Origin: Woeseiaceae bacterium
GTDB lineage: Bacteria; Pseudomonadota; Gammaproteobacteria; Steroidobacterales; Woeseiaceae
NCBI GenBank assembly: GCA_041587435.1
Contig: JBFGYM010000001.1
Coordinates: forward strand, 1-56,933
Reading direction: 5' to 3'
DNA: 56,933 nt
In this document: piece by piece, positions 42,194 to 56,661 of the stretch
Numbering within the stretch: the stretch's first letter is position 1
Layout: each line of letters opens with the position of its first letter
Translations under genes and position numbers: made by a program
Notes under the pieces: generated by a model
The model's input: only the letters and a program-made list of their open reading frames with translations
Databases searched by the model: none
What the model was told of the DNA's origin: nothing

Positions 42194-42233
42194 GGCAGGA
42201 TCCGTTACTGGCAGCGCAGTATCGTATCCTAAA

Positions 42234-42254
42234 TACGAATCACTCTCATTCGTA
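42234..42254. promoter_or_regulatory. Inverted repeat in AT-rich leader of the porin gene (possible operator)
   Basis: TACGAAT-CACTCTC-ATTCGTA, 7-bp arms, 41 nt upstream of the porin ATG. Confidence 0.3.
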
Positions 42255-42307
42255 ATACGTAGTTGTCACAACCCCGGGCGGCCGTCGTTTAATTGCCGCA
42301 AACGAAA

Positions 42308-42329
42308 GCGGCGCTGAAATCAGCGCCGC
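42308..42329 (-). terminator. Rho-independent terminator ending the shdr-lbpA-fadL transcription unit
   Basis: GCGGCGCTG-N4-CAGCGCCGC, 9-bp GC stem, followed on the minus strand by TTTCGTTTGC. It lies 46 nt after the FadL-like stop. It is the only such structure seen downstream of 56567 on this strand. Confidence 0.75.
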
Positions 42330-42374
42330 AATCGTGACGACGGCCAGATGTATCCTGGCCTTAATCATTGACTC

Positions 42375-43769
42375 CTAGAATCGATAAGCGACTTCGAATT
42401 CGAACTGGCTCATCTCGAGCGTGATCGTCTGCGTCGGGTCGAACGTGCTCGGACCCTGGATCTCGAAACTCGGCGCGTACATCATGGACAGCGACAATGT
42501 ATGGCCGTTTGCGCGGCGACGCGTCCAGCCCACGGTCATGTGCTGTTCCATGACGCCCGGCGCGAGAATATTGAACAGCATCTCGCTGCGCGGAATCGGC
42601 TGGTCGCCGAAGCTGTAGCCGATGCGCCAGGTGTTGTCCTCGTTGGCCGCCCATTCGAAACCTAACTTGTAAACGGTCACGTCGTCCCAGCCGAAGCCCG
42701 CGCCATTCGGTCCGCCGAGGCAGCCGTTCGTCGCCGGCGCAACGCCGGGGTTCGCCGTGAAGCATCCCGTCAGCAGGTTCACGATCGGGTTGTGCACCGA
42801 GTCGACGTCGCTGTAGGCAATGTGCTCGATGTCGACGTTGACGCGTGCCGATTCACCCGGCTTGAAGGACAGGCCGGCCTTGATCGACGACGGGATATCG
42901 AAGCCGCCGTCCTGTGCAAACAGGTCCGCGTAGTCGTCGAACTCGCTCATCGACAGTTTCGACTGGTAGGCCAGGCCGACACTGAAGGTGTCGCTGCCCG
43001 CCCAGAGTCCGGCGGCCACGCCGAACCCGGTCGACATGTCACTGCCGTTGTCGGTCAGGCTCGTTACCGGTGCGCCCATGCCGTTCTGCAGGAACGCGTC
43101 GGCGAAAGTCTGCGTGTACGGCGCGAACGTAGCGACCCCGGTCGCCTCGAACATCTGGGCCGCGACCACCGGGCCGATGCCGATCGCCAGGTTCGGCGTG
43201 AGCTTGCGCGCATAGTTGACGCTCAGGAACGCCTGCATCAGGTCGACGCCGGCCTTGCCGGCGCCGTACACGCCGGGGAACGTGCCGGGCGCACCGCCCT
43301 GCCCGGTCGGGTCGAACAGGGCAGACTGACCGCTGTCCCACTCGGTGTTCATGCCACCGCGGCCGTAAAAGACGAGCGACAGCGCGCTGTCGGCAGACAG
43401 TTCCCAGTTCTTCGCGAGGTAGGGAATCGGGAACGCCTCGTTCTTGCTGTCGTGCTTGCCCTGGCTCAGCGTCAACGCGCCGAAGTTGCCGTTGGCAAAG
43501 CTCGCCGAGGCTTCGTAGGAACGCATCGGGCTGAAGATTGCCAGGCCGAACTGCCAGCTCTCGTCCGCGAACACGCCCAGTGCGGGGTTCGTCGCGGCGC
43601 TGATGCCGCCCATGTTCTCGGGACTGCCGACACCCGTGCCGGCCATGCCTTTCGACTCGGTGCCGACGCCGTGCGTGAAATAGCCGTTGGTCGCCAGTGC
43701 GGAGCTGCTGAAAGCGAACAACCCGGACGCCACCAGGGCGACTGCGGCTTTCGTGGGTGTAACTCTCAT
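42375..43769 (-). CDS. FadL/OmpP1/TodX-family outer-membrane channel for hydrophobic compounds
   Basis: Signal peptide MRVTPTKAAVALVASGLFAFSSSALA, then TNGYFTHGVGTESKGMAGTGVG (FadL N-terminal hatch motif). C-terminus ...FEVAYRF. ATG 43769 overlaps the ArsR stop as ATGA. Confidence 0.85.
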   Translation of the reverse strand: MRVTPTKAAVALVASGLFAFSSSALATNGYFTHGVGTESKGMAGTGVGSPENMGGISAATNPALGVFADESWQFGLAIFSPMRSYEASASFANGNFGALTLSQGKHDSKNEAFPIPYLAKNWELSADSALSLVFYGRGGMNTEWDSGQSALFDPTGQGGAPGTFPGVYGAGKAGVDLMQAFLSVNYARKLTPNLAIGIGPVVAAQMFEATGVATFAPYTQTFADAFLQNGMGAPVTSLTDNGSDMSTGFGVAAGLWAGSDTFSVGLAYQSKLSMSEFDDYADLFAQDGGFDIPSSIKAGLSFKPGESARVNVDIEHIAYSDVDSVHNPIVNLLTGCFTANPGVAPATNGCLGGPNGAGFGWDDVTVYKLGFEWAANEDNTWRIGYSFGDQPIPRSEMLFNILAPGVMEQHMTVGWTRRRANGHTLSLSMMYAPSFEIQGPSTFDPTQTITLEMSQFEFEVAYRF

Positions 43770-44113
43770 CGTTTTTCTCCCTGCGATTCGCAAAATACTT
43801 CGTGAAGCGTTTTCATTACCATGGGCGCCTCTTCCCCCGCCAGCGAATAGCTGACCGATTGCGCATGTTTCCTGGCTTTGACGATCTTTTCGCGGCGCAG
43901 CACAGCGAGGTGCTGGGACAGCGCGGACTGGCTGAGCCCGAGAATCTCCTGCAGTTCGCTGACGGTCTTTTCACCCTCCGACAGCTGGCACAGGATCATC
44001 AGGCGCCATTCGTTGGCCATGGCCTTGAGCAGCTCGACGGCATGCGCCGCGACGTCGTGCAGCTCCGTGAGTTTTTCGAAGTCCTCCACTGTGTTGACGG
44101 TGTCCTCGATCAT
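43766..44113 (-). CDS. ArsR/SmtB-family transcriptional regulator with two cysteines (sHdrR/SoxR-like)
   Basis: Winged HTH ...LLKAMANEWRLMILCQLSEGEKTVSELQEILGLSQSALSQHLAVLRREKIV... ATG 44113 overlaps the lbpA stop as ATGA; the TTG at 44122 in the ORF track is the alternative start. Confidence 0.85.
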   Translation of the reverse strand: MIEDTVNTVEDFEKLTELHDVAAHAVELLKAMANEWRLMILCQLSEGEKTVSELQEILGLSQSALSQHLAVLRREKIVKARKHAQSVSYSLAGEEAPMVMKTLHEVFCESQGEKR

Positions 44114-44553
44114 GCGCCGCAACCGCCGAATCCCTCGGAATCCATCTTGGCTTCGTAAGCGCCGCTGACGTTGCTGCCGATGACGAGCGAACCCTTCACC
44201 GAGTCCCAGTCCTCGGGTTTGAGGATAATCAGCCAGCCCTTCTCGTAGGGATCCTCGTTGGCGATGCTCGGATCCGCGACGAGGTCTTCGTTCACCGCCA
44301 CGACTTCACCGCCCGCAGCGGACTTCGCCGGCCCGACCCACTTGCCGGACTCGAGCGTGCCGCAGGACTTGCCGGCCCGCACGCTGCGACCGACCTTCTT
44401 CGGCGTAAACGCAACGAGCTTGCCGGCCATTGCCGTTGCCACGGTCGTCATACCGATCTTGACCGTCCCGTCGCCGACTTCGGTGAACCAGATGTGGTTG
44501 TCGACGTCGTAGAGCAATTCGTCAGGAAGGTTACATCCCCTTACAGATGGCAT
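44110..44553 (-). CDS. lbpA: GcvH-like lipoate-binding protein LbpA
   Basis: 147 aa with a glycine-cleavage-H fold pattern. Lipoyl-lysine context GTLESGKWVGP. AAGGAGG Shine-Dalgarno. No gcvP or gcvT nearby; instead embedded in the shdr cluster. Confidence 0.88.
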   Translation of the reverse strand: MPSVRGCNLPDELLYDVDNHIWFTEVGDGTVKIGMTTVATAMAGKLVAFTPKKVGRSVRAGKSCGTLESGKWVGPAKSAAGGEVVAVNEDLVADPSIANEDPYEKGWLIILKPEDWDSVKGSLVIGSNVSGAYEAKMDSEGFGGCGA

Positions 44554-44555
44554 AC

Positions 44556-44999
44556 CTATGCCTCCTTTGTGTTGGTCGTCTTGGAGTCCTGCGCGGATCG
44601 GATCGGTTTCGACGAACAGCAGAATTCGCCCAGACCAGCCACCTGCAGCTTTCCGGCAATGAACAAATACAGGTGCTTGGATACCAGAGCCATCATCGAC
44701 AAGCGATCCGTAATATCCGCATGCCCGGGCTGCATCGTAACGAGGTTGTAATGATACGCAACCTCGCGGCAGGTCTCCCGGCAGGCATTGAAGCTCGGGT
44801 CGCCGCGCGCGCCCTGCCGGTGCAGGGCCAGCAGCCGGAATCCTTCGCGGGTCTCGCCGGTCGGGACTTCGCCCCTCGCGACGATCCAGTGCTCGAGCAC
44901 CTCCTCGCTCGCCCGCAACAGCCCGTCGGCCGACGCCGTGCAGTCCCCGGACCGCGGCGGCGCGTCGAAGAACGCCTCGAGTTCGGCAAGGGTTCTCAA
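44556..44999 (-). CDS. Conserved-looking hypothetical Cys-rich protein between shdrB2 and lbpA
   Basis: 147 codons with host-like GC3-rich codon usage. TTG start overlapping the shdrB2 stop (TTGA). Six Cys (GDCTAS, NACRETCRE, EFCCSS). No family recognised. Confidence 0.6.
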   Translation of the reverse strand: MRTLAELEAFFDAPPRSGDCTASADGLLRASEEVLEHWIVARGEVPTGETREGFRLLALHRQGARGDPSFNACRETCREVAYHYNLVTMQPGHADITDRLSMMALVSKHLYLFIAGKLQVAGLGEFCCSSKPIRSAQDSKTTNTKEA

Positions 45000-45937
45000 C
45001 CGAGGCCCCTTTCTTTCAGGAACGCGATCGAGTCATTGACGTTCTCGTGAACACCAACCTTCCTGGGTTTGAGGCCGAGCGCCATGCCGAGCAGCTGCGT
45101 GAAGTAGAGGATCTTGATGTCCACGGTTTCGCCGAGCGTTTTTTCGGCCCGAATCTGGTGCATCTCGAGGCCTGAATGGCAGGTCGGACACTCGGTCGCG
45201 ATAACGTCGGCGCCCGACAGCTTCGCGGCCTTCAGGATATTGAGCACGAGCTTGGTCGACGTGTCGCTGTCCGACAGCGTGTGCGCGCCGCCGCAGCAGG
45301 CCGTCTTCAGCGGGAAATCGACGTTCTCGGCGCCGGCCGCGGCCAGCAAGTCGTCCATGAAATGCGGCTTTGACGTCGATTCGCTGCCCGGACCCTGGTC
45401 CTTCTCGGGAAATATGTGCCGCGGACGCGTGTACATGCATCCGTAGTAATTCGCGACCTTGATGCCCTCGAGGGAGTTCTTTACGCGCGCCTTGAGGCCC
45501 TCCTCGCCGATGGCGTCCTTGATCCAGTCCAGCGCGTGGATGGTCTCGACCTGGCCGGCCTCGTACGTCTTGTGCCCGGCTTTTTGCGACAGGCGATCGA
45601 CAACCTCCGCCGATTCCTTGTCATTGGCGAGGTCGTATTCGGCTTTCTTCAGGTTGTGATAGCAGCCGTTGCAGGGCGCCATCACGACGTCCATGTTCAT
45701 CTCGTTGGCCGCCGTCGACATCACACGCGACGACAGGTACGTCTGGATCTTCGGGTCGATGTTCTTAACTTCCATCGCGCCGCAGCAGTTCCAGTTCTTG
45801 ACCTCGACGAGGTCCAGGCCCAGCGCCTTGCCGACCGCCTTCGTCGAGCGGTTGTACGCGTGGCCGGTGCCCTCGAGCGCGCAGCCCGGGTAATAGGCGA
45901 CCTTCTTGTACTTGTCTTTGGTCGTGCTCATCCGCAA
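44996..45937 (-). CDS. shdrB2: sHdrB2, heterodisulfide reductase-like subunit B (two CCG domains)
   Basis: YYPGCALEG...NWNCCGA and YYGCMYTRP...KTACCGGAH are CCG-domain motifs. Confidence 0.9.
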   Translation of the reverse strand: MRMSTTKDKYKKVAYYPGCALEGTGHAYNRSTKAVGKALGLDLVEVKNWNCCGAMEVKNIDPKIQTYLSSRVMSTAANEMNMDVVMAPCNGCYHNLKKAEYDLANDKESAEVVDRLSQKAGHKTYEAGQVETIHALDWIKDAIGEEGLKARVKNSLEGIKVANYYGCMYTRPRHIFPEKDQGPGSESTSKPHFMDDLLAAAGAENVDFPLKTACCGGAHTLSDSDTSTKLVLNILKAAKLSGADVIATECPTCHSGLEMHQIRAEKTLGETVDIKILYFTQLLGMALGLKPRKVGVHENVNDSIAFLKERGLG

Positions 45938-45943
45938 TCCTCG

Positions 45944-46711
45944 TCAGGCCGCAACGTCTTGCTTGGCCGTTTCAACCAGTTCCGCGAGGCTCAGCGCCTG
46001 CTCGTGCTTTTCGTTCTGCTCGTCGATGTATTCCTGGATCGCGGCGGACGCTTTCGACCAGTCGCTCGTCTTCGGGGCGAACAGTGTCGCAAGCCCCATG
46101 CGCGTCAACAGGCTCATCGGCAAACCCTTCAACATGCGCTTGACCATCTCGATCATCCACGGCTGCATCAGGCCCTGGCCGGTGCGCGCAAAAAAGCGAC
46201 GGATCGTGCGGCTCTCCTCGATCTTGCCCGTCTTCACGATCTGCTCCGTGAACACCTCGTCGAAGTGCATCGACGGCGATTTTTCCGTGTGGCCTTTCAT
46301 CTCGAGCCAGTGCGACGTCGCCTTCATGACGCCTTCCGGGAAGACGTCGCGCGGGCAGGCATACGTGCACTTGTTGCACGAAATGCATTGCCAGATGATG
46401 TCCTTGTCGCGCAGCAATTCGGACTCGTAGCCCATGCGGATCAGGTAAATCCAGTATCGCGGATTGAAGTCGTTGTTGATCGCGTTGACCGTGCACGCGT
46501 TGGTGCAGGACCCGCATTGCCAGCAGCGGTGAATATTCTCGCCGCCCGGTAACGCCGCGATTTCCTCCTCCAGGCTTTCGTTGTAGTCATTCACCACGCG
46601 CGATTCGATGAACGTGCTCCAGTGCCCCGATACGTCGACACCGTCCAGCACGAGGTGCTCGTGTTCCTTGAGGTTCTCCGGGCGAATCAGCGATTTTTCA
46701 TGAATAGGCAT
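45944..46711 (-). CDS. shdrC2: sHdrC2, heterodisulfide reductase-like subunit C (2x[4Fe-4S])
   Basis: CWQCGSCTNACT and CISCNKCTYACP ferredoxin-type motifs. HdrC-like helical C-terminus. Confidence 0.88.
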   Translation of the reverse strand: MPIHEKSLIRPENLKEHEHLVLDGVDVSGHWSTFIESRVVNDYNESLEEEIAALPGGENIHRCWQCGSCTNACTVNAINNDFNPRYWIYLIRMGYESELLRDKDIIWQCISCNKCTYACPRDVFPEGVMKATSHWLEMKGHTEKSPSMHFDEVFTEQIVKTGKIEESRTIRRFFARTGQGLMQPWMIEMVKRMLKGLPMSLLTRMGLATLFAPKTSDWSKASAAIQEYIDEQNEKHEQALSLAELVETAKQDVAA

Positions 46712-46724
46712 GCGGGTCTTCCGT

Positions 46725-47567
46725 CTAATTCAGCTTGCTGTCGTCGATGCGAAACGCCTCGCCGTCGATCGACTTGAGTCGGGTACGGCCATCGCCGGGC
46801 TGCACGCCGTCCAGGCCGAGCAGTCGCCGTGTGTGTTGCATCGGGTCCTCGGGCGCCGTGAAGTCGGCCCTCAGGTAGGAACCGCCCTGCTCGCAGATGT
46901 ACTGCGCGTAGATCTGCGCGCACACCACGTCGACGTAAAAGAGGACGTCGCGAAACACGCCGTTGTCGCTGAGAAACTGCGATAACTCCTCGCGCAGCAT
47001 GATGTAGGTACCGAAACCGTCGGCGACCGGGATCGTCATCGCGTCGACGTCTTCGCCGTGCCAGATTTCCCGGATGACGCCCGTGTTCGCCTTGGCGTCC
47101 CAGACCCAGCGATTCATCAGCGGCACGCGCTCGGGATCGGCGTTGTGCAGCAACTCGGCGGCCAGGTCACGCACCCAGCGGTGTTTCTTGTCCCGGGGAA
47201 ACGCGTCACAGAAACGGCCGACGCGATTGTCGATGTGATCGCCGTCGTCAAACAGGCCGACAATGTGGCTGCGCATCTCCGTGAATGCGTGGTCGTTCAG
47301 CCAGCCACCGATGCGGCGACGCACGGTCGACATGAAGGTGCAAAGCCCCTTGAAGGTTTCGAGATCGAGCTCTGCCAGGTCCCGCTCGACGAGCGCCTGG
47401 CGAAACATCGTGCTCTTCAGCTTGACTGCGTCGACATAGCGTTCGATTCCGCCGGTTTGCTCGGCGCGCGTGACCGCGTCCTGGAACGCCGCGCGTATCG
47501 CGGGGCCGTGAAGGTCGAGCACGGGACGCTCGAATTCTTGCGGCTTGAGTGCGGTGGTCGACGGCAT
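46725..47567 (-). CDS. shdrH: sHdrH, conserved hypothetical protein of shdr clusters
   Basis: 280-aa ORF in the invariant position between shdrA and shdrC2. No cofactor motif. Confidence 0.7.
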   Translation of the reverse strand: MPSTTALKPQEFERPVLDLHGPAIRAAFQDAVTRAEQTGGIERYVDAVKLKSTMFRQALVERDLAELDLETFKGLCTFMSTVRRRIGGWLNDHAFTEMRSHIVGLFDDGDHIDNRVGRFCDAFPRDKKHRWVRDLAAELLHNADPERVPLMNRWVWDAKANTGVIREIWHGEDVDAMTIPVADGFGTYIMLREELSQFLSDNGVFRDVLFYVDVVCAQIYAQYICEQGGSYLRADFTAPEDPMQHTRRLLGLDGVQPGDGRTRLKSIDGEAFRIDDSKLN

Positions 47568-47574
47568 CGCGGGA

Positions 47575-48618
47575 CTACGCGGACTTCAGGGACTTGGTGC
47601 TGGAGAGGACCGCCATTGCGGCGGCGTGGCCCTGCGCAATCGAATCGTCGATGGTCTCGGGGCCCGTCGCCGAGCCCGCCACGAAAACGCCGGGGCGTGA
47701 CGTGGCGCCCATCACGCCGTAGCGGTTGGCAACGCCGATGTAACCGTGCGGCTCGAGATCGATGCCGAAGGTCTCGGCAATCTGCGGGTTATCGACGTTC
47801 GGATCCATGCCGATCGCGTGCACGACCATGTCGAACGGGATCGTGATCGGGCGTTTCACCAGCGTGTCCTCGCCCTTGACGATGAGCTTCTCACCGTCTG
47901 ACGTCACTTCGGCAATGCGCGCCTTGATGTACTTGACCTTGAACTCTTCCTGGCTCTTCCAGTAGTACTTGGTTTCGTACAAGCCGAACGTGCGAATGTC
48001 CATGTAGTAAATGTAGACGTGGCAATCCGGCAACTCCTCGCGAATTTCCATCGCGAGGTTCGACGAGACGGTGCAGCAGATCTTCGAACACCATTCCCGG
48101 CCGATCTGGCGGTCGCGCGAACCGACGCAGAGCAGGATCGCGACGCGCTGCGGCTTGCGGCCATCCGACGGGCAGCGAACCCCCTGCCCCGACGAGATCA
48201 TCTGCTCGACCTGCGTCGTGGTGACGACGTCGGCATACGAGCCGAAGCCCCATTCGGGCTTGTTCACCGAGTCGAAGTGCGTGAATCCGCTGCACAGGAT
48301 CACGGCCTCGGCTTCGACCGCGTCGCCGTTCGACAGGTGCGCCGTGAAATTGCCGGGCGCGCCGTCGAACGTCGTCACCGTGGCGCCGGTGACGACGTTG
48401 ACGCGACCTTCGTCTTCGACGCGCTTCACCATGCCGCCGATGGCGTCTTTCGCCCACTCACCCGTCGGCACGAGCTTGGCGTAGCCGGACAGGATCGGCG
48501 CCCCGCCCAGGCGGTCTTCCTTTTCGACAAGGACGCAATCCTTGCCCACGGTCGCGAGACTGTGAGCGGCGGCCAACCCTGCGGGTCCGCCGCCTACGAT
48601 CAGAACGGGTTTACTCAT
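47575..48618 (-). CDS. shdrA: sHdrA, FAD- and [4Fe-4S]-containing heterodisulfide reductase-like subunit A (short form)
   Basis: VLIVGGGPAGLAAA dinucleotide fold. Cys cluster CVGSRD...WCSKICC. 347 aa, so it lacks the ferredoxin/MvhD extensions of methanogen HdrA. Confidence 0.9.
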   Translation of the reverse strand: MSKPVLIVGGGPAGLAAAHSLATVGKDCVLVEKEDRLGGAPILSGYAKLVPTGEWAKDAIGGMVKRVEDEGRVNVVTGATVTTFDGAPGNFTAHLSNGDAVEAEAVILCSGFTHFDSVNKPEWGFGSYADVVTTTQVEQMISSGQGVRCPSDGRKPQRVAILLCVGSRDRQIGREWCSKICCTVSSNLAMEIREELPDCHVYIYYMDIRTFGLYETKYYWKSQEEFKVKYIKARIAEVTSDGEKLIVKGEDTLVKRPITIPFDMVVHAIGMDPNVDNPQIAETFGIDLEPHGYIGVANRYGVMGATSRPGVFVAGSATGPETIDDSIAQGHAAAMAVLSSTKSLKSA

Positions 48619-48651
48619 GGTCTGTTGCCTGTTTCGTTTGGCGTGTAAGGG

Positions 48652-50001
48652 TCAGCCCTTGTGCTCCACGGCCTTGTAGCCGGGACCGGACGTAATCATC
48701 AAGCGCGGATCGTAGAGGGTCTCCCCACGCCCGGCTTCGACTTCCTTGAGGTAGTCCTCGAATTCCTTCTTCTTGGCCTGCCAGTCGATACCGAGCTTCT
48801 CGAACAGCGTTTCCGTCGGCGAAGCGTGCCAGTGCGACTGCACGATCTTGTAGGGATGCGCGCCGCAGGCAAGGGCGGCTAACTGCACATCCGCCAGCAC
48901 CGGCAGCTCGACGGGCTTGCCGGCCGCTGCACCGATCCACTGGTTCTTGTCGAGTGTCGTGATGCAGCCCGTGTCGTGGCCCACCATCACGTCGGCACGG
49001 GCCTCTTCCTGCGCGACACGGAGCTTGCGATCGATTGCAAACGAGCGCGTGAATTCGCGTTCCGAAATAATGTGGCGGAAGCCGAATCCGCAGCAGTCGT
49101 ACCAGGTCGAGTAGTCGATGACCTGCGCTCCCAGGGTTTCGAGGACGCCGGTCGTCACAGCCACACGGTTGCCGTCGAGCACGTCGTCGTCGTAGATGGC
49201 GTCCTGCGGGACCATCTTGTACACGTGACACGCCGGATGGACGGTCGCGCGGATGGACGCGAGGTCGATCACCTGGTGCTCCTTGATGCGCTTGCGCATG
49301 ACGTGCACCCACTCGGAGTAATGCACGACTTCCTCGGGAATGAGCAGCTTGCCGTCGACGAGGCGGCCGAGCTTGCCGAGAATGGTCTTCACACGATCGC
49401 GCAGCTTGGCCGAGTGAACCAGGTATTCGCGGACTTCCTTGTAGTTGCCGAAAGACGTGCCGCAATGCACGAGCGGGTAGAAGTAGCCCTCCGGCAGTCC
49501 CTGCGCCTTGGCGGAGACGTAGGCCTGGTGGAAGTTGCGCAGGAAGACGGCGGCCAGGCTCTCGATGTTGCCGATACCGGAGCCGTGGTAGTTCCAGGCC
49601 GTGCACGAGGTCTGGTCGGTCTCGTCCAGGTAGCGGATGTCCATCTTGTTCATGAGCCACAGGAGGGACGCGGGATAGCCCGGAATGTTGCCGCACTGGC
49701 CGCAGGACTTGTGGTGCCACAACTGGTTGGTGGGGACTTTCTTGTCCCAGCCGTACAGCGTCTTGGCAATGACGGGCTCGTGCTCGTCGGTGACGCGGTG
49801 CACGGCGATCTCGCCGTCCTTTTCGAGTTCCCACATCGCATCGCGCACGTCTTCGACGCGATCCTTGTTGGTCAGCATCGAGCGCTTGTTGATAATCTGG
49901 TCGACCCAGACCGTCGCGGTGTGCGCATCCTGTTTCGACAAGTTCGAGTCGACCCACTCCGACCCGTGTCCCGTAAACCGTTCTCCGCCGTTACCCGCCA
50001 T
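48652..50001 (-). CDS. shdrB1: sHdrB1, heterodisulfide reductase-like subunit B
   Basis: 449 aa. Cys-rich CCG-type motifs (HKSCGQCG, DCCGFGFRH, GHDTGCITT). Confidence 0.88.
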   Translation of the reverse strand: MAGNGGERFTGHGSEWVDSNLSKQDAHTATVWVDQIINKRSMLTNKDRVEDVRDAMWELEKDGEIAVHRVTDEHEPVIAKTLYGWDKKVPTNQLWHHKSCGQCGNIPGYPASLLWLMNKMDIRYLDETDQTSCTAWNYHGSGIGNIESLAAVFLRNFHQAYVSAKAQGLPEGYFYPLVHCGTSFGNYKEVREYLVHSAKLRDRVKTILGKLGRLVDGKLLIPEEVVHYSEWVHVMRKRIKEHQVIDLASIRATVHPACHVYKMVPQDAIYDDDVLDGNRVAVTTGVLETLGAQVIDYSTWYDCCGFGFRHIISEREFTRSFAIDRKLRVAQEEARADVMVGHDTGCITTLDKNQWIGAAAGKPVELPVLADVQLAALACGAHPYKIVQSHWHASPTETLFEKLGIDWQAKKKEFEDYLKEVEAGRGETLYDPRLMITSGPGYKAVEHKG

Positions 50002-50037
50002 GGCACCCCTCCAAAAAAATGTTACCCGCTTGCGCGG

Positions 50038-50784
50038 CTAATCGTCGTCCTGCTCGTCGAGCCAGTCTTCGTAGTCGTCACGCTTCTCGTCCATGATGTC
50101 CATGATGACGTCGAAAAGGTTTTCATCGATGGTCTCGAGGCTGTCGAGGACACCGGTCTCTTCCCAGATGGTGTAGAGCTCGACCGAGGTCTTGAGATTC
50201 ACTTCCCAGGCCGTCGCCGTGGTATGCAGCGTGGGCATCGGAATCGCCTTGCGCAGCGTCGTGAGCGGCGCATCGACCTTGGAAACGTTCGGTCCCCAGT
50301 CGGCGAAGCCTTCCGGGTTGATCATGTCGGGCGACAACTGGTTGCCCGTCGAGATCAGCTTGAGCATGACGCGGCTGAACGGGCGCAGCACGCTCTTCGC
50401 CGACTCCATGCCGTGTTTGATTGCCGCCTCGCGCATCAGCATGACCAGGCCGCCCGGCGAATTGCCGAACGGACACCGCGCGGCACACGTGTAGCACTGG
50501 GCACAGGACCAGATCTTCTCCTGCATCGCATCGTGGATGCCCTCCAGATTCTCGGTCCAGAGAAGCTGCACGATTTCGCGCGGGCTGAAATCGTAGTAGT
50601 GAGCCGCCGGGCACGTCGCGGTGCAGATGCCGCAATTGAGGCAGCCGTTCAGCTCGTGGTCGAAGCGCAGGTCCGCCTGGATGTCCTGGAAAATCTCCTC
50701 CAGCTGAGCGCGATCGACGGGTGGCGAATCCGAAACCGGGTCGCCAATGTATTCCTGTACCCGGGAAGCCGAGGAATGGGACAT
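50038..50784 (-). CDS. shdrC1: sHdrC1, heterodisulfide reductase-like subunit C (2x[4Fe-4S])
   Basis: CLNCGICTATCP and CAQCYTCAARCP motifs. Confidence 0.88.
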   Translation of the reverse strand: MSHSSASRVQEYIGDPVSDSPPVDRAQLEEIFQDIQADLRFDHELNGCLNCGICTATCPAAHYYDFSPREIVQLLWTENLEGIHDAMQEKIWSCAQCYTCAARCPFGNSPGGLVMLMREAAIKHGMESAKSVLRPFSRVMLKLISTGNQLSPDMINPEGFADWGPNVSKVDAPLTTLRKAIPMPTLHTTATAWEVNLKTSVELYTIWEETGVLDSLETIDENLFDVIMDIMDEKRDDYEDWLDEQDDD

Positions 50785-50798
50785 GAGTCAGCCTCCTG

Positions 50799-51176
50799 TC
50801 AGTAGGAAAGTACCCGGCAGTCGCCTTCCATGACTTCTTCAATGAGGTGCGCGCCGCCGACGATACCTTCGCATTCGGGAATCAGGTCTTCCTTGGTCAT
50901 GTCGAACAGGTCGAGGTTCGGCGAGCAGCAGTAGAACTTGGCACCGGCTTCGTGCGCATCCTGGATAAAGCTGTACACCGATTTCGGCGAGCCCTCCTTG
51001 ACGAACAGCTTCTCGGCAACGCCCTTTTTCATGAGCCGTCCCGAGGTCGCCGTGCAGATGACGTCGACGTCGTAGTCCATCGCAGCCGCGACGGTCGCCT
51101 GGAAAATCGGCGCCCCGAGTTCCTCGCCGTTGCGCGGGTCGGTGTTCGCCATGACGATGATCAGTTTTTCAGCCAT
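50799..51176 (-). CDS. dsrE3: DsrE3-type sulfurtransferase (DsrE/DsrF family)
   Basis: MAEKLIIVMANTDPRNGEELGAPIFQATVAAAMDYDVDVICTATSGRL... with conserved Cys in AKFYCCSPN. ATG 51176 is preferred over ORF start 51206. Confidence 0.8.
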   Translation of the reverse strand: MAEKLIIVMANTDPRNGEELGAPIFQATVAAAMDYDVDVICTATSGRLMKKGVAEKLFVKEGSPKSVYSFIQDAHEAGAKFYCCSPNLDLFDMTKEDLIPECEGIVGGAHLIEEVMEGDCRVLSY

Positions 51177-51229
51177 TTCTCGTGTGTCCCCTCGAGCCTG
51201 ACGCAAGTCAAACAGTTAATTAGGATATA

Positions 51230-52018
51230 CTAAACTACCGGCGCCTCCAAATCCCTGGCGGCCCGCGGAGCGGCCATCAGGGACGTGCATTGCACGAGTC
51301 CGGTCATGATGGGCACGAGCTCGTCCGCGAGGACGGGCTGCAGCCCGCGCAGGCGTTCGAGCTGCCGCGCCGCGTCCGCCGGCACCTCCTCGAACTCCAT
51401 GATCAGGTCCTCGACCATGCCCAGCTTGATGCCGGGGTTGGCCGAAAAACCAAAGGCGTTCTCGCCGACCTGCCATACGGCGGGCCGATCCCGCTCGTCG
51501 CGGGCCAGGATCACAGCATCCGGCGGCGGCACGGGCCAGTCGCGCATGTAGACGACCTGGTGAAAAGACGCCGGCAGGTAGCCGTTCAGCGCGTCGTCGC
51601 GCGTGCGCGTCACGGCGAGGTGTTCGAGGGTCAGCGCCCGCGCCTCGACGCCTCCGCCCGCGGCCAGTGCCAGGATCTGCGCGCCGAGGCCGAAGCCCAC
51701 GACCGGTGTGCCCTCGTCGAGGCGCTGCCTCGTAATGTCGATTTCCTGCCCGAGCGTCGGCAGGTCACGTCCGCCGGCCGCGCCCCAGGGCCCCCCGCCG
51801 AGCAGGATCAGCGCGTCCGCCGGCAGGTCGGGCGCCGGCAGCCTGCCGGCTGCGAACGGGCGGTAATACTGGAAACGGATGCGGCGACCTTCGAGGTGGT
51901 CCTCGATCAGGCCGAGGTACTCGCCGGCCGTGTGCTGGATCACGGCGACGACGTTCATGGGGTTCGCTTCGCTGGCAGCGAGCATGAAGGCATCGTCGGG
52001 GTTCTTGCACTGCGCCAT
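51230..52018 (-). CDS. Class I glutamine amidotransferase-like protein lacking the catalytic triad
   Basis: GATase1 fold pattern (ALILLGGGPWG...PVVGFGLGAQILA). The nucleophile Cys position reads Gly (GFGLGAQ vs G-x-C-x-G-x-Q). The HPE-type motif reads ANPG. Confidence 0.7.
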   Translation of the reverse strand: MAQCKNPDDAFMLAASEANPMNVVAVIQHTAGEYLGLIEDHLEGRRIRFQYYRPFAAGRLPAPDLPADALILLGGGPWGAAGGRDLPTLGQEIDITRQRLDEGTPVVGFGLGAQILALAAGGGVEARALTLEHLAVTRTRDDALNGYLPASFHQVVYMRDWPVPPPDAVILARDERDRPAVWQVGENAFGFSANPGIKLGMVEDLIMEFEEVPADAARQLERLRGLQPVLADELVPIMTGLVQCTSLMAAPRAARDLEAPVV

Positions 52019-52020
52019 GG

Positions 52021-53097
52021 CTAGGCGCCTTCCCGCTTCGACAACGCGTCGTTGATCGATGCAATGAAGTCCTCGGCGCCCGCGCTGAGCATGCCGATCT
52101 CCGACTCTTCGAAAAAGCGCTTCACGGTTGCCTCGACGTCCTCGAGGCGCGTGCCGGCCAGGGCAGCTTCGAGATCGAACACGACGCGCGGCGGCGTCAC
52201 GAAGAAGTCCCCGGTGATCAGGACCCGCTGCAGGATGCCGAGCTTCGGGCCCTCGAGCTTGACGAACGCGTTAATCGAACCGCCGGGACCCGTGCACGAC
52301 CCCTCGAGCAACTGGTCTGTGCCGCCCGGGTTGTCGATTTCGCGCAGGAAGTCCTCGGTGCCGATTTCTTCGTCGAAATGCGCCTGCGCCCGCGCCTCCT
52401 CGGCAGCGGTGATCTCGCCGGGTTCGGCCTCGATGCCGAGTCCCGCCTCGAAGCCGCGCACCAGGGCGGCCTGGATTGTCTCCATATCGGGCAGGTCGTC
52501 GCCGAGCAACTCTTTCAGCGTCACGACGCGTTGTTCGGCCGAGTCGAGATCGTGCTTGGCGACCTTGGCGGCGGGAATGTTCAGCGCCCGCACCATCTGC
52601 GCCGGGTTCATGTCGACGAGCACGGTGCCCTGGTAAATGAGAATATCGCCGTCGAAGAAGCCGCCGGTCCCGCTGATCTTGCGGCCGTCGACTTCGATGT
52701 CGTTGCGTGGACGGAACTTTGCCTTCACGCCGAGCTCTCGCAGTCCTGTTGCCGCCGCATTGCAGATCGCCGCGGCCAGGTCCGGCAGGTTCGCGATGCC
52801 GAGCGACGCGCGGTGAAACACGAGTTCCCAGCCGAGCTGGCCTTCGTCGAGGTAGATCGCACCACCGCCCGTAACGCGGCGCACGACGCCGACGCCGTCC
52901 TCGGCGCAATAGTCGAGGTTGACCTCGCGGCTGAGGTCCTGATGCCTGCCGATCAACGCCGTCGGCGGAAAGCGCATGAAACGGATCGTGTCCGGCACCC
53001 TGTCCTGCTGCCGGAGTTCGATCAGGGCCGGGTCGAACGCAATATTGGCGCGGCCTTCGCGAACACCGGTATCAATGATGCGAAACGGCGCGCCCAT
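52021..53097 (-). CDS. Lipoate-protein ligase, LplA type with fused C-terminal domain (sLpl(AB)-like)
   Basis: RFMRFPPTALIGRHQ..., RRVTGGGAIYLD, GRKISGTGGF (lipoyl-AMP lysine motif). About 100-aa accessory C-terminal domain. Confidence 0.88.
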   Translation of the reverse strand: MGAPFRIIDTGVREGRANIAFDPALIELRQQDRVPDTIRFMRFPPTALIGRHQDLSREVNLDYCAEDGVGVVRRVTGGGAIYLDEGQLGWELVFHRASLGIANLPDLAAAICNAAATGLRELGVKAKFRPRNDIEVDGRKISGTGGFFDGDILIYQGTVLVDMNPAQMVRALNIPAAKVAKHDLDSAEQRVVTLKELLGDDLPDMETIQAALVRGFEAGLGIEAEPGEITAAEEARAQAHFDEEIGTEDFLREIDNPGGTDQLLEGSCTGPGGSINAFVKLEGPKLGILQRVLITGDFFVTPPRVVFDLEAALAGTRLEDVEATVKRFFEESEIGMLSAGAEDFIASINDALSKREGA

Positions 53098-53100
53098 CGA

Positions 53101-54282
53101 TTACTCGACCGTAACCGGGATATCGAGCTGCTTGCGGATTTTCCTGAGGTCTTTCTTCTGCGGCTGGAACGGGTAACTCGCGATGTCGCTCGGCGGCGAG
53201 TCGCCGTACGGCCGGTCGCAGGCCGAGATGTCGTCCTGGAACTTGCCAGGGCAGCCCGAGGTGCGGAACGCGATGCCGGCGTCGATGACGTCGTTCAGCT
53301 CGGCATCGCCGATGCCGTAGCTCTTGACCCTGCCCTGGTCGTCGAACGTCATCTGTCCGACACGGACGCCGCGGTAGTCGATCAGGTAGCGCGCGAGCTG
53401 CACGCGGCGCCACTGGTCGCGCGGCGTCGCGGGCAGGTGATCCATGAGCGAACCGTCCTCCGGGAAGAAGCAGAACATGTGGCTGTGACCGCCGAGGTCC
53501 ACGAGCTCCTGGACCAGGTTCAGGACCTCGTACTCCGTTTCGCCCATGCCGACGATGATGTGTGCGCCGAATTTGCCGGCGCCGAAAATGTCCCTCGCCT
53601 CTAGCAGGATATCCCAGTATTTCTGCCACTTGTGCGGCGACTGCACGCCCTTGCCGCGCGTCCGGTCGAAGATCTCGGGCGTTGCGGCGTCCAGTGCCAC
53701 GGTGAAGATATCCGCGCCGAGGTCCTTGCATTGCTGGACGTCGTCGCGGGTCATCGTCGTGGGGTTCGACAGGATCGACACGGGAATTGCGCCGGGGTCG
53801 ATGCGGTCCGTCCATTGCTTGAGAACCGTGAACGTATCGTCCTCGGAGCGCGGGTGCGTAATCATCGAAATGCACATGCGGTGGAACGGGCTGGCGTCGG
53901 GATCCCTGGCGACGATGTCGACGATGTCGGCCATCGGCACGGCCGGCCAGTCGACGCGGATGAAGTTGCGATCGGCGTAATCGCGCTCGGCTTCGCGATG
54001 GCGCGCAAGGCCGCAGTAGGCGCAGTTCGCGCGGCATCCTTCCGGGTACGTCAGCAACAGGTTCAGGCAGCGCGTGCAGTCGCAACCGTACATGCGGCCC
54101 CCCATGATCCCGAGCGTGATGGCGGCCGCGTTCGACAGCTGCACGTATTCCGGCGACTTCATGTGCGGCGCGAGGAAATTGTTGTTCGGCAGGTAAACGC
54201 CTTCGGGCGGAATGTCGTTCGCCTTGACGGGCTTGCCGTTGCGCCGTTCGACGGGCGTCTTGCCGGGCAAGCGGGGCTCCAT
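53101..54282 (-). CDS. LipS-type radical SAM protein (archaeal-type lipoyl synthase component, LipS1/LipS2 family)
   Basis: CRANCAYCG (CX3CX2C) radical SAM cluster motif. BioB/LipS-like. Adjacent to the ligase. The start is uncertain: ATG 54282 has no Shine-Dalgarno, and the frame is also open to ATG 54408 (GAGGA Shine-Dalgarno) and TTG 54423. Confidence 0.8.
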   Translation of the reverse strand: MEPRLPGKTPVERRNGKPVKANDIPPEGVYLPNNNFLAPHMKSPEYVQLSNAAAITLGIMGGRMYGCDCTRCLNLLLTYPEGCRANCAYCGLARHREAERDYADRNFIRVDWPAVPMADIVDIVARDPDASPFHRMCISMITHPRSEDDTFTVLKQWTDRIDPGAIPVSILSNPTTMTRDDVQQCKDLGADIFTVALDAATPEIFDRTRGKGVQSPHKWQKYWDILLEARDIFGAGKFGAHIIVGMGETEYEVLNLVQELVDLGGHSHMFCFFPEDGSLMDHLPATPRDQWRRVQLARYLIDYRGVRVGQMTFDDQGRVKSYGIGDAELNDVIDAGIAFRTSGCPGKFQDDISACDRPYGDSPPSDIASYPFQPQKKDLRKIRKQLDIPVTVE

Positions 54283-54285
54283 ATT

Positions 54286-54384
54286 GGTGACAGTTTCGGT
54301 GACAGTCACCTTAACTCCGGCCGAGCTGTCGCCCCTGCCACGTTGGTCAGGGGAGTTAAGGTGACTGTCACCGAAACTGTCACC
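54286..54384. repeat. Perfect 33-bp inverted repeat with 33-nt spacer (99-nt palindromic element)
   Basis: 54286-54318 GGTGACAGTTTCGGTGACAGTCACCTTAACTCC is the exact reverse complement of 54352-54384. Each arm contains the 6-1-6 palindrome GGTGAC-N-GTCACC. Confidence 0.9.
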
Positions 54385-54419
54385 ATTCTTGTGCTGTCTG
54401 CAACCCATATTGTCTGTCC

Positions 54420-55457
54420 TCAAGCGGCGAACGACGCCTGCAGTCGTGATTTGATGTCGCTGCCCACCTTGATCGAGCAGCAGGAATGCGCCTGTTCGAA
54501 CGGGCGCCCGATCGTGTGCGCGACCGACACGGCCCCGTCGGCCGGGAACGCGATGCCGTCAAGCCCGGCCATGATGGCGTAGGCGTCCGTGACGCGCTTG
54601 TGCATGCCGGGCGGCCGCGCACAGCCGAGCAGCACCTGCTGGTCGGCGAGCCGCTCGCGCGCCTCGAGGAAGATGCGGCCGACGTCCGAGGTTCCGGGCG
54701 TGACGAACGTGCCCGGTTTCGCGTAGAACGGCATGATCACGACGAGCACGAGCGCGTTGACGTCGTAGCGGCTGATCATGTCCAGCGCATTGGCCTCGCC
54801 GAGGATCTGCCCGTAGTGCAGCCCGACGACTATGTGCGGCGTGACCTCCATCGACGTGGAACACAGTGCTGCCAGCGTCTTCTCGAAGTCCTCCACGGGA
54901 CGCCGGAGCTTGTATACCTGCTCGATCGTCTCCTGCGCGCCGATGACGTCCATCATCACCGTGTCGACGCCGGCCGATTCCATCTGCTTCGCGCGGCGCT
55001 CGTCGAGCAGCGCCGTGTGCACGGCGATCTTGAGGCCCGGGAAGTCGCGCTTGAGCCCCTCGATGACCGGCATGTAACGGCCGTACGGAATCTCGTTCTT
55101 GCGGTTCGAGCCGCCCGACAGGAGAAAGCCGCTCAGGGCCTGCGTCTTCACCAGGTGGCGGACTTTTTCGTCCAGCATGGCCGGGCTCGTCGCCGGAATC
55201 ATCGGCTCGAGGATCTTCTTCTGGCAATGATCGCAGTTCAGTCCGCACTCGCCGGCCGTGATGGAAAACGCCGGGAAGCTGTTCTTGCCGCAGCCCTCGA
55301 GCTCCGACGTCTCGTACTCCTTGAAAGTCGGGGTCGAAAATCGGATCGGCCGCGATACGACACGGTCGGCGCGGCGTTCGAACTGCGCGACGAGATCCGC
55401 GTCGAAAGCGGCGTCCTCGAGGTCCTCGATCGTGAGCAGCGCATTCAGCCAGGTCAT
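54420..55457 (-). CDS. LipS-type radical SAM protein (second lipoyl synthase component)
   Basis: CGLNCDHCQ (CX3CX2C). 345 aa. 12 nt downstream of the HDAC-like gene. Confidence 0.8.
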   Translation of the reverse strand: MTWLNALLTIEDLEDAAFDADLVAQFERRADRVVSRPIRFSTPTFKEYETSELEGCGKNSFPAFSITAGECGLNCDHCQKKILEPMIPATSPAMLDEKVRHLVKTQALSGFLLSGGSNRKNEIPYGRYMPVIEGLKRDFPGLKIAVHTALLDERRAKQMESAGVDTVMMDVIGAQETIEQVYKLRRPVEDFEKTLAALCSTSMEVTPHIVVGLHYGQILGEANALDMISRYDVNALVLVVIMPFYAKPGTFVTPGTSDVGRIFLEARERLADQQVLLGCARPPGMHKRVTDAYAIMAGLDGIAFPADGAVSVAHTIGRPFEQAHSCCSIKVGSDIKSRLQASFAA

Positions 55458-55469
55458 ACCGTCGTTTCC

Positions 55470-56567
55470 TCAAAAAGCGTCAACGAGCAATCGTATCTCG
55501 TCGCGGATGGGCCCGGGGTGCGGAGTGTCCGCCAGCGTCGTCAACCATTCCTCGCGCATGTGGTCCTCGTCAACGAGATCGCACTTCATGTTGCACAGGT
55601 ACTCCGTCGCTTCCGGCGGCAGGCGCTCCGGGAACGGCCGCCCGCTGATGCGGCCCCACATGCCGGCCCAGTAACGGGTCACGGTCCATGGATTATAGCC
55701 GCCGCCGCCGAGGATGACGGTCGGCAGCCCGCGCGCGATCAGCTTGTCGACGGCGTCCCAGAGCGCGACGTTGGACAGTTCCATCGTCGACAGCGGGTCT
55801 CCCGCGAGGCAGTCCGCGCCGCAACACAGCACGAGCGCATCGGCCTGCACCCAGTCCACGAGCGGCACCACGGCGCCTTCGAAGAGAAACCCGAACTCGC
55901 TGTCGTTCAGGCCGCGCGGCACCGCGAGATTGTAAACACCCGCCTCGGGCCGCGAGCTCGTGCCGCTGAAGGGCCAGCGTTTCGCCTCGTGCAGCGACAG
56001 GGTCGTCGCGCGTGGCTCGTCGACGAACGCATCCTCGACGCCGTCGCCATGATGGGCGTCGAGATCGACATAGAGAACGCTGCGCCGGCCTTCCTTCAGG
56101 AGGGTCAGGATGGCAAACACGGGATCGTTGAAATAGCAGAAGCCGCTGGCACGGTCCGACCGCCCGTGGTGCGTGCCGCCGGTCGGATGGAACACGACGT
56201 GCCCGCGGCTCGCGAGTTCGGCCGAGAGGATCGAACCGCCGACCGTCATCGACGCACGTTCGAACAGTCCCTCAAAGAGCGGATTCTCGAAGGTGCCGAC
56301 CCGGTAGCGCTCGCGCACGTCGCGCTCGACGGACCCTGTGGCGTTTGCGTATTGCAGTGCCCGCACGTACGCACGACTATGAAACTCGACCAGCTGTTCG
56401 ACGGTGGCGGGGCGGCTCTCGCGGAACGCGGCTTCGTCGAGCCAGCCGAGCATCTTCAACAGGTCGACGACGGCTGCATGGCGGACGATGTTGAGCGGGT
56501 GATTGCGAGCGAAAGCCGGCTTTCGGTAGATCTCGCTGCCCACGAAAAACGGCGCGCTGACGGTCAT
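55470..56567 (-). CDS. Histone-deacetylase-family Zn-dependent deacylase (AcuC/Aph-like)
   Basis: All catalytic motifs are present: GGTHHG (tandem His), DLDAHHGDG (Asp/His Zn ligands), GADCLAGDPL (third ligand Asp), GGGGYN (catalytic Tyr). Confidence 0.88.
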   Translation of the reverse strand: MTVSAPFFVGSEIYRKPAFARNHPLNIVRHAAVVDLLKMLGWLDEAAFRESRPATVEQLVEFHSRAYVRALQYANATGSVERDVRERYRVGTFENPLFEGLFERASMTVGGSILSAELASRGHVVFHPTGGTHHGRSDRASGFCYFNDPVFAILTLLKEGRRSVLYVDLDAHHGDGVEDAFVDEPRATTLSLHEAKRWPFSGTSSRPEAGVYNLAVPRGLNDSEFGFLFEGAVVPLVDWVQADALVLCCGADCLAGDPLSTMELSNVALWDAVDKLIARGLPTVILGGGGYNPWTVTRYWAGMWGRISGRPFPERLPPEATEYLCNMKCDLVDEDHMREEWLTTLADTPHPGPIRDEIRLLVDAF

Positions 56568-56661
56568 CGAACGAGAATATTATATTTCCCTAATAAAGAC
56601 AATTCTGATAATCTGATATGCGCTAGCTGCATACCCCTTACCATGACCGAGGTGCCGAGAA
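56568..56661. promoter_or_regulatory. AT-rich divergent promoter region between the HDAC-like gene and the dsrE2-like gene
   Basis: Markedly AT-rich for this genome. Perfect TATAAT on the minus strand (56579-56584). GATAAT on the plus strand (56607-56612). Tandem 8-mers TCTGATAA/TCTGATAT (56604-56619). Confidence 0.5.

Follow-up and report, generated by a model that had tools for sequence, protein, structure and literature searches.

A probable type I sHdr-LbpA sulfur-oxidation locus in a Woeseiaceae-like gammaproteobacterium, with a lipoate-assembly module that lacks LipT, a conserved HDLP-like deacylase and a four-Cys protein

A stretch of 56,933 nucleotides from a Woeseiaceae bacterium (contig JBFGYM010000001.1 of assembly GCA_041587435.1; the whole stretch is called the window below) carries a block of 16 co-directional minus-strand genes that runs from 56567 down to 42375, as seen from its open reading frames and their translations. 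The block comes from a Woeseiaceae-like gammaproteobacterial metagenome-assembled genome (MAG) and is very probably a type I sHdr-LbpA locus, serving the cytoplasmic oxidation of sulfane sulfur; as such it would be needed for growth on, or oxidation of, thiosulfate or sulfane sulfur. The system itself is already known; what departs from it here is a conserved deacylase, a missing LipT and a four-Cys protein. The Woeseiaceae version of the locus is complete and self-contained, yet without LipT. The sHdr-LbpA pathway ranks among the main cytoplasmic sulfur oxidation routes, and Woeseiaceae are described as cosmopolitan, abundant core members of marine-sediment communities.

Gene order, sHdr core and lipoate assembly

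Taken from the first gene to the last, the Pfam and NCBIfam matches are Hist_deacetyl, two radical-SAM proteins (the first with LipS1 and the second with LipS2 as best model), LplA-B catalytic plus LplB, a weak GATase1, a DsrE-family protein, HdrC-like, HdrB-like (CCG), HdrA-like, a no-family protein, HdrC-like, HdrB-like (two CCG), a second no-family protein, GCV_H, ArsR/HTH_5 and Toluene_X (FadL). All the product families named in the original prediction, an earlier annotation from the sequence alone, were matched. Its co-directional run between 56567 and 42375 is borne out by the open reading frames, and the overlaps that it gave at shdrB2/Cys-rich frame (TTGA), lbpA/arsR (ATGA) and arsR/fadL (ATGA) were all seen. 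Its count of 15 genes was one short of the 16 names in its own list. Of the spacing that it described, one part stands (with refined starts the other gaps are 53 nt or less); the "137-nt gap" is coding, not intergenic.

The gene order corresponds to that of Hyphomicrobium denitrificans Hden_0683-0696: lipS1-lipS2-slpl(AB)-lipX-dsrE3C-shdrC1B1AHC2B2-hyp-lbpA. In that organism lipS1 is Hden_0683, lipX 0687, dsrE3C 0688 and lbpA2 0696 (PMC10451225), and the gene string dsrE-hdrC1B1A-hyp-hdrC2B2-hyp-lbpA has been described (PMC6067878). The window resembles the H. denitrificans locus (Hden_0682-0696) in i) the order from lipS1 and lipS2 through to hyp-lbpA (PMC10451225, PMC6067878); ii) its sHdrA, the Cys83/Cys84 pair of DsrE3C and a two-Cys repressor of ArsR type; and iii) a regulatory repeat in the lipX-dsrE3C gap. 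It differs in five respects: no lipT lies between lipS1 and lipS2; lipS1 is preceded by an HDLP-like deacylase gene instead of shdrR; the gene for the repressor comes after lbpA and overlaps one of the FadL family; dsrE2-tusA are the divergent neighbours; and no sox or soxT genes are in the window. H. denitrificans seems to have no HDAC gene of its own, although it does have the hyp.

Related loci were collected by scanning an alignment of four sHdrA sequences against one genome per GTDB species. This gave 80 loci with 10-kb flanks from Woeseiaceae, 'Lysobacterales', Hyphomicrobiales, Rhodospirillales, Burkholderiales and other MAGs, in which gene presence and adjacency were scored by tblastn with the window proteins. 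The 80 loci are the closest by sHdrA (76-92% identity), which counts against any wider reading: the frequencies are not valid for Acidithiobacillus, Thioalkalivibrio, Aquifex or archaeal clusters. The shdrC1-B1-A-H-C2-B2 order of the window is unchanged in all related loci, and the 280-residue sHdrH, for which no Pfam or NCBIfam match was found, lies between shdrA and shdrC2 in every related locus extending that far. The cofactor motifs read in the original prediction are present, among them the CCG motifs of the HdrB proteins, except that the first of the two [4Fe-4S] motifs of sHdrC2 ends in CT rather than CP. In DsrE3C, Cys83-Cys84 is invariant in 68/68 homologues; the functional cysteines of the H. 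denitrificans protein, encoded by a 378-bp gene, have the same residue numbers (PMC11094781).

Since HdrA, HdrB, HdrC, QmoC and GcvH are all among the NCBIfam matches, the Hdr-like genes might be read as a methanogen-type Hdr, Qmo or Tmc complex and the GcvH-like protein as the H protein of glycine cleavage. All such matches are far below their cut-offs. The 347-residue sHdrA resembles the solved H. denitrificans protein (6TJR) in architecture over almost its whole length (residues 3-344, E=7.5e-182), against a partial match to the 650-residue methanogen HdrA (residues 100-338, about 1e-55). It is thus related to short sHdrA rather than to methanogen HdrA, as had been expected, and this decides the main refuting condition of the original prediction. 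LbpA scores under both NCBIfam GcvH cut-offs (106 vs 117 and 76.6 vs 115.85), no gcvT or gcvP lies within the window, and lbpA keeps its place amid shdr genes in 65/65 related loci. By cut-offs, 6TJR match and synteny, the methanogen-type and glycine-cleavage reading is not supported and is to be considered highly improbable, and LbpA is distinct from bona fide GcvH.

The sHdr-LbpA pathway with lipoate-assembly genes of its own is thus favored, by the match of sHdrA to 6TJR and the position of lbpA. LbpA homologues conserve C7, C64 and C145 besides an invariant K71. Lipoate-binding proteins of sHdr systems are described as modified solely by sLpl(AB) and not by canonical LplA/LipB (PMC6067878), and the same would be expected of the window protein. 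The sLpl(AB) of the window matches the NCBIfam lipoyltrans model at 2.3e-42, and its LplB match covers residues 285-352. LipS1 and LipS2 have one CX3CX2C motif each. Two points weigh against the overall reading: the whole evidence base is MAG sequence, and LipS1 (199 vs 230 bits) and LipS2 (180 vs 270 bits) are both under the curated NCBIfam equivalog cut-offs. The assignment of the two synthases is supported because of synteny with the characterized H. denitrificans genes. In about 60 loci, all LipS2 homologues start with M-(G/S/T)-C-(I/V/L/F)-(E/K), and the invariant N-terminal Cys lies outside the region covered by the archaeal LipS2 model.

The GATase1-like protein was correctly read as "triad-less". 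Its GATase1 similarity is sub-threshold (Pfam GATase 21.9, under the 22.8 cut-off). In alignments with PDB proteins the nucleophile Cys of G-x-C-L-G-x-Q is replaced by Gly in GFGLGAQ, and the HPE equivalent reads GNPG. Among 40 homologues, the Cys position is Gly in 40/40, the His is kept in 7/40 and the Glu position is Gly in 40/40. From these substitutions it is predicted not to be an amidotransferase. It is the LipX of the literature. The lipX gene adjoins dsrE3C in 61/66 loci.

No LipT homologue was found anywhere in the window, where the lipS1-lipS2 junction is 11 nt. In 19 loci, an insert of 1.17-1.23 kb between or near lipS1 and lipS2 codes for a flavoprotein of the geranylgeranyl reductase family, the type to which LipT, a flavin adenine dinucleotide (FAD) oxidoreductase, belongs (PMC10332631). 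The lipT gene occurs in about 53% of LipS1/S2 bacteria and is frequent, not universal (PMC10332631). It is missing from Woeseiaceae and most 'Lysobacterales' loci. Its absence raises the question of the electron source for LipS1 and LipS2.

Features of the sHdr-LbpA locus and its borders (window coordinates)
Feature	Coordinates	Strand	Evidence or remark
dsrE2, divergent	56662..56933	+	cut by window end; tusA next in source contig
conserved about 45-bp block in the 94-bp divergent intergenic region	56573..56618	.	near-invariant across Woeseiaceae
HDLP/class-I-HDAC-like Zn-dependent deacylase ("AcuC" in annotations), first gene	55470..56567	-	Pfam Hist_deacetyl 2.3e-60
LipS1-type radical-SAM lipoyl synthase	54420..55457	-	NCBIfam LipS1 NF053742 best, 9.9e-59; CGLNCDHC at residue 71
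LipS2-type radical-SAM lipoyl synthase, 435 aa	53101..54408	-	NCBIfam LipS2 NF053743 best, 6.4e-53
palindromic element in the lipS2 N-terminal linker	54276..54394	.	43-nt arms, 33-nt loop
sLpl(AB) lipoate:protein ligase, fused LplA catalytic and LplB accessory parts	52021..53097	-	Pfam LplA-B_cat 3.3e-45
LipX, putative GATase1-like pseudo-enzyme without triad	51230..52018	-	weak GATase matches
candidate operator-like inverted repeat TTAG-N6-CTAA, over the lipX stop	51220..51233	.	sole perfect copy in the 57-kb window
dsrE3C-like sulfurtransferase, 125 aa	50799..51176	-	Pfam DrsE_2 2e-11
sHdrC1, two-[4Fe-4S] ferredoxin subunit	50038..50784	-	Fer4 Pfam; HdrC NCBIfam best; two CxxCxxCxxxCP
sHdrB1, CCG-domain subunit	48652..50001	-	Pfam CCG; HdrB NCBIfam best, 2.7e-28
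sHdrA, short Fe/S flavoprotein, 347 aa	47575..48618	-	6TJR match; GGGPAG and Cys cluster
sHdrH, conserved hypothetical, 280 aa	46725..47567	-	between shdrA and shdrC2
sHdrC2	45944..46711	-	Fer4 Pfam; motifs CWQCGSCTNACT and CISCNKCTYACP
sHdrB2, two CCG domains, 311 aa (gene callers)	44996..45931	-	Pfam CCG 4.4e-24, 2 matched stretches
four-Cys helical protein, "hyp" between shdrB2 and lbpA	44556..44999	-	synteny 65/65 loci
LbpA, GcvH-like lipoate-binding protein	44110..44553	-	Pfam GCV_H 9.7e-32; lipoyl-Lys71 in ESGKWVGP
sHdrR-like ArsR/BigR-type repressor, 115 aa	43766..44113	-	HTH_5 5.4e-15
FadL/TodX-family outer-membrane channel, signal peptide	42375..43769	-	Pfam Toluene_X 37.1 vs 29.7 bits
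terminator-like hairpin after the last gene	42308..42329	-	9-bp stem, 8 G-C pairs

The HDLP-like deacylase and the four-Cys protein

The original prediction had listed at least five members of the block as having no known role in the pathway. For most of them this is outdated: the pseudo-GATase already has a name, LipX (PMC10332631), the Cys-rich frame is a "hyp" of the H. denitrificans gene string (PMC6067878), the ArsR protein corresponds to sHdrR (BigR as best match, two invariant Cys), and the palindrome is an inserted repeat and not a member of the cluster. The FadL-family protein is a divided case, taken up below. The HDAC-like gene does remain a member without a described role: no mention of a deacetylase or AcuC together with sHdr, LbpA or LipS1/S2 was found in the freely searchable literature, which excludes paywalled papers.

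The best PDB match of the HDAC-like protein is Aquifex HDLP (1C3R, E=4.7e-70). Its likeness to the A. aeolicus enzyme (1C3R/1C3P), 36% identity, extends over the full length including the C-terminal region and covers all Zn-binding and catalytic residues. H133/H134, D170/H172/D257 and Y291 are invariant in 46/46 homologues. With no variation in the His-His pair, the Asp-His-Asp zinc ligands or the catalytic Tyr, the enzyme should be catalytically intact and is predicted to be active. We know of no physiological substrate for Aquifex HDLP or for the window protein.

The gene lies immediately upstream of lipS1 in 43 of the 53 testable species loci, from Gamma- and Alphaproteobacteria, and at another place in the locus in one. 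The gene is found both in clusters that have lipT and in clusters that lack it. Homologues sharing 72-85% identity are numerous and bear the annotation AcuC, and in all three metagenome contexts looked up tusA-dsrE2 lie divergent to HDAC-lipS1-lipS2-slpl-lipX-dsrE3C-shdr. A catalytically intact deacylase, as predicted, is thereby tied to lipoate-assembly genes across two proteobacterial classes. A tentative proposal is that the HDLP-like deacylase is dedicated to LbpA maturation in many proteobacterial sHdr systems, and that the four-Cys protein is an unrecognized sHdr-LbpA subunit or sulfur relay. If dedicated, the deacylase could be an N-epsilon-acyl-lysine amidohydrolase that strips acetyl, octanoyl or damaged lipoyl groups from Lys71 of LbpA in repair or recycling; alternatively, it could free octanoate or lipoate from other acylated proteins for the ATP-dependent sLpl(AB). 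If true, this would provide a source of free octanoate or lipoate for the ligase and a physiological role for a bacterial HDLP-type enzyme.

Several observations speak against such a dedicated role. The HDAC gene is absent from 9/53 loci. In the alphaproteobacterial loci L064 and L069 it stands divergent to dsrE2-tusA after lbpA-arsR and not beside lipS1; from these two loci, the conserved unit may be the divergent promoter pair rather than HDAC-lipS1. The HDLP orthologues of Aquifex pyrophilus and Hydrogenobacter thermophilus are surrounded by housekeeping genes and unlinked to shdr or lip genes, and in this the Aquificaceae differ from the window. It is position from which a role is read, and a lysine deacylase in LbpA maturation or repair is favored.

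The absence of the gene from nine clusters, the setting of the Aquifex and Hydrogenobacter orthologues and the AcuC label given by the source annotations would also suit a general AcuC-type deacetylase of proteins or small molecules that shares the promoter region and has no specific role in LbpA or sulfur metabolism. This possibility is a doubtful one, in view of the place of the gene directly upstream of lipS1 in two proteobacterial classes, irrespective of lipT, of the 12-nt spacing to lipS1 (a gene with a Shine-Dalgarno sequence of its own) and of its position behind the conserved operator-like block.

Two further ideas about the deacylase were rejected. A link between HDLP and sulfur oxidation in Aquificota found no support, the orthologues being among housekeeping genes. 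The HDAC-like protein as functional replacement of LipT does not fit seven loci that have both. Every testable locus (L012-L091) has the HDAC gene, lipT or both, and none is without both; this may reflect phylogeny.

The second departure is the four-Cys protein, whose gene lies between shdrB2 and lbpA in 65/65 loci and is positionally no less conserved than the sHdr subunits. Its H. denitrificans counterpart is the unnamed "hyp". Neither Pfam nor NCBIfam has a family that matches it, cluster look-ups returned no names, and a Foldseek search against the PDB gave nothing better than E=0.35. The family comprises about 6,000 clusters at 90% identity and 136 at 50%. Two motifs vary little or not at all: SFNACRETC, with its CxxxC on a helix, and FCC at the C-terminus. 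AF2 models the protein (pLDDT 72) as a bundle of four helices whose Cys-Cys tail is disordered. We infer that it assists the complex as a thiol/persulfide relay or by binding metal. The deacylase, the missing LipT and the four-Cys protein are candidates for how LbpA gains and keeps its cofactor, for the electron supply and for further partners of the complex.

Regulation and the palindrome within lipS2

The repressor finds its best equivalog in BigR (3.6e-23). It shares with the BigR/SqrR/SoxR/sHdrR repressors this best match, the HTH_5 domain and two invariant cysteines (Cys42 and Cys108, in 39/39 homologues). It differs from them in falling below the BigR cut-off (81.5 vs 155 bits). As an sHdrR-like protein it would bind operators in the shdr/lip region, for which there are candidates, and would be released from them by persulfidation. 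The arsR gene follows lbpA in 37/56 loci, and fadL follows arsR in 27 loci.

The candidate operator is an inverted repeat, TTAG-N6-CTAA. Palindromes of the ATTAG-N6-CTAAT type are kept at the lipX-dsrE3C position from Woeseiaceae to Hyphomicrobiales loci, and a copy with one mismatch lies just upstream of the first gene (56580-56593), where the 3' half of the about 45-bp block is recognizable in 'Lysobacterales' loci as well. Number does not favor an operator: three TTAG-N6-CTAA sites in the window against 2.0 expected are not above chance by themselves. The argument for it is made because of position and cross-species conservation. In H. denitrificans, the lipX-dsrE3C intergenic fragment and a fragment upstream of lipS1 bind SoxR and sHdrR (PMC10451225, PMC12423496). 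The conserved repeat provides a testable sHdrR binding motif.

The original prediction had packaged the pathway as one transcription unit, and the entire 14-kb block might indeed be transcribed from one promoter ahead of the HDAC gene. Its junctions are all 53 nt or less, three gene pairs overlap, the lipX-dsrE3C gap has no sigma-70 consensus match, and the sole strong terminator-like hairpin comes after fadL; the hairpin at 42308-42329, singled out earlier as the only convincing terminator, is the best site in a scan of 41000-56933. The 53-nt lipX-dsrE3C gap, on the other hand, holds the only perfect TTAG-N6-CTAA of the window, the repeat is conserved there across orders with a small stem after it, and the homologous H. 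denitrificans region binds both regulators. Furthermore, the lip module is on the strand opposite to the shdr genes in six loci (L077, L081, L082, L084, L086 and L091), and the two halves are therefore separably expressible. Because the conserved repeats stand at two sites and the corresponding H. denitrificans fragments bind SoxR and sHdrR, two regulated promoters are more likely than one obligatory 14-kb transcript; a single unit is not supported and is rather unlikely.

The small stem-loop after the operator-like repeat, GTTTGAC-TTGC-GTCAGGC (51196-51213), stands before dsrE3C. Sister loci keep a stem at this place with other sequences (TTAGAC/GTCTAA, TTGGAC/GTCCGG), which suggests compensatory change. 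In a check for covariation, the loops were misaligned in MAFFT, and regex-based folding gave weak stems of 4-9 bp with modest z-scores.

At the other promoter region, the sequence TATAAT (56579-56584) lies inside the about 45-bp block, 11 nt before the HDAC ATG, and the ATG has no Shine-Dalgarno sequence. Because of these two features the first gene may be translated from an mRNA with a very short leader or none. Other Woeseiaceae have a longer 5' region before the HDAC gene.

The "137-nt gap", said earlier to be intergenic and occupied by a palindromic element, is covered by the lipS2 reading frame. The lipS2 start was revised from 54282 to the ATG at 54408, 11 nt past the lipS1 stop. This ATG is preceded at 8 nt by the Shine-Dalgarno sequence GAGGA, and gene callers give a 435-residue product. 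The N-terminus so gained, M(G/S/T)C(I/V/L)(E/K), is conserved at the protein level in about 60 loci. A linker motif, D(Y/F)N(P/A)(F/Y)E, is conserved there too and is lost in the window species.

The arms of the palindrome (54276-54318 and 54352-54394) are 91% complementary, and the encoded peptide reads ..GDSFGDSHLNS..GVKVTVTETVT... The frame of lipS2 is open through every version of the insert, in each lineage that has the palindrome. Only some sister lineages have it at the lipS2 site, and many others have a short 62-nt version. Loop and arm length differ even between near-identical strains (L001, 2715-2860, vs L003, 4217-4360), whose flanking proteins are about 99-100% identical; the element evolves far faster than its surroundings.

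A functional regulatory RNA between lipS1 and lipS2, such as an attenuator, a processing site or a translational brake, would account for a hairpin as stable as this (RNA fold of -85.6 kcal/mol, z=-9.2) at the same site in several Woeseiaceae lineages. It is an improbable explanation, given the sister lineages with the short version, the variation between L001 and L003, the reading frame that is always kept and the absence of an Rfam match; neither known RNA families nor tandem repeats were found in the block. Also against it, the arm core GACAGTYACCTTAAYTCC forms hairpins in 13 metagenome contigs that are unrelated to lipS2, have 51-63% G+C and are without lipS1 or lipS2 (L114, L120, L127, L128, L139, L153, L163, L167, L174, L183, L187, L191 and L192). 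In 12 of the 13, no open frame of at least 80 residues runs across the hairpin. These 13 are the matches paired in inverted orientation outside lipS2 loci, out of 118 metagenome arm-core matches, most of which are single and estimated to be about what chance gives for a collection of this size.

Because it is coding in frame, patchy in presence and found as hairpins in the 13 unrelated contigs, the palindrome is one of a dispersed set of palindromic repeats, inserted here without a frame shift into a linker of lipS2 that tolerates it. The arm core looks like a widespread family of palindromic repeats. Like Rickettsia palindromic elements and REP-type repeats, it is a short palindrome at many unrelated sites, here in frame in a protein-coding gene; unlike them, it belongs to another sequence family and has a single copy in the 57-kb window. 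A repeat spread over the window was considered and rejected: neither the 57-kb window nor the flanks of the clusters in 91 loci gave a second copy.

Working model, the FadL-family channel and neighboring genes

A working model has been inferred from the H. denitrificans, Thioalkalivibrio and Aquifex literature. Sulfur would enter a relay of DsrE2/TusA, encoded by the divergent genes, and DsrE3C. The lipoamide arm of LbpA would then present it to the sHdrC1B1AHC2B2 Fe/S-flavoprotein complex for oxidation. In the maturation of LbpA, sLpl(AB) would ligate octanoate or lipoate to Lys71, LipS1 and LipS2 would insert the two sulfurs of the cofactor, and LipX would be a non-catalytic partner. The HDLP-like deacylase would act on an N-acyl-lysine tied to this maturation, either removing acetyl, octanoyl or damaged lipoyl groups or freeing octanoate or lipoate. 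The sHdrR-like two-Cys repressor probably controls expression via the operator-like repeats upstream of the HDAC gene and in the lipX-dsrE3C gap, giving two putative operons, lip and dsrE3C-shdr-lbpA-shdrR-fadL, with possible read-through. The FadL-family channel may bring a hydrophobic substrate across the outer membrane, be it octanoate, lipoate or a hydrophobic sulfur compound.

The N-terminus of the FadL-family protein is a signal sequence, MRVTPTKAAVALVASGLFAFSSSALA. In 'Lysobacterales' loci a homologue lies beside tusA-dsrE2. LipY, a "putative fatty acid transporter" encoded next to the lip genes in Thioalkalivibrio, has been described with no family name given (PMC10332631). The earlier view of FadL as a member without a role is therefore modified in part: a transporter has been described next to lip genes, and the FadL-like protein may be of its family. 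The Thioalkalivibrio sp. K90mix module, lipS1-slpl(AB)-lipT-lipS2-lipY (PMC10332631), is otherwise like the window in the dedicated maturation of LbpA by sLpl(AB), LipS1 and LipS2 in a gammaproteobacterial sulfur oxidizer, with the gene of this putative transporter attached. It is unlike the window in gene order, in having lipT and in that no deacylase has been described.

The block is chromosomal, the rest of the window consisting of flagellar and housekeeping genes. Identical proteins are found on contigs of several NCBI MAGs, e.g. GCA_041567135.1, and the nearest species-level relatives are labeled Woeseiaceae, Chromatiales or Gammaproteobacteria. A full-length homologue of the truncated DsrE2 (from L003) scores above the NCBIfam DsrE2 equivalog cut-off (222.9 vs 210), and the TusA of the divergent pair carries CPLP.

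Downstream of the cluster, a divergent SufS-like cysteine desulfurase homologue of 568 residues, a pyridoxal-phosphate enzyme, is encoded at 39247-40953 (minus strand). The gene is kept downstream in most Woeseiaceae loci (73-85% identity) and is also nearby, on the opposite strand, in several 'Lysobacterales' loci. A link to LipS1/S2 through Fe-S or sulfur supply is possible. Between fadL and the SufS-like gene lies an OprB-family porin gene (41045-42193, minus strand). The porin is probably not part of the system, because a homologue at the locus is confined to this species and L028.

In the related Woeseiaceae contigs L009, L010 and L011, a SorA-like molybdoenzyme, ATP sulfurylase, adenosine-5'-phosphosulfate (APS) reductase and an NiFe hydrogenase operon lie upstream of tusA-dsrE2. 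These contigs hold a larger island for sulfur and hydrogen lithotrophy, into which the window does not extend.

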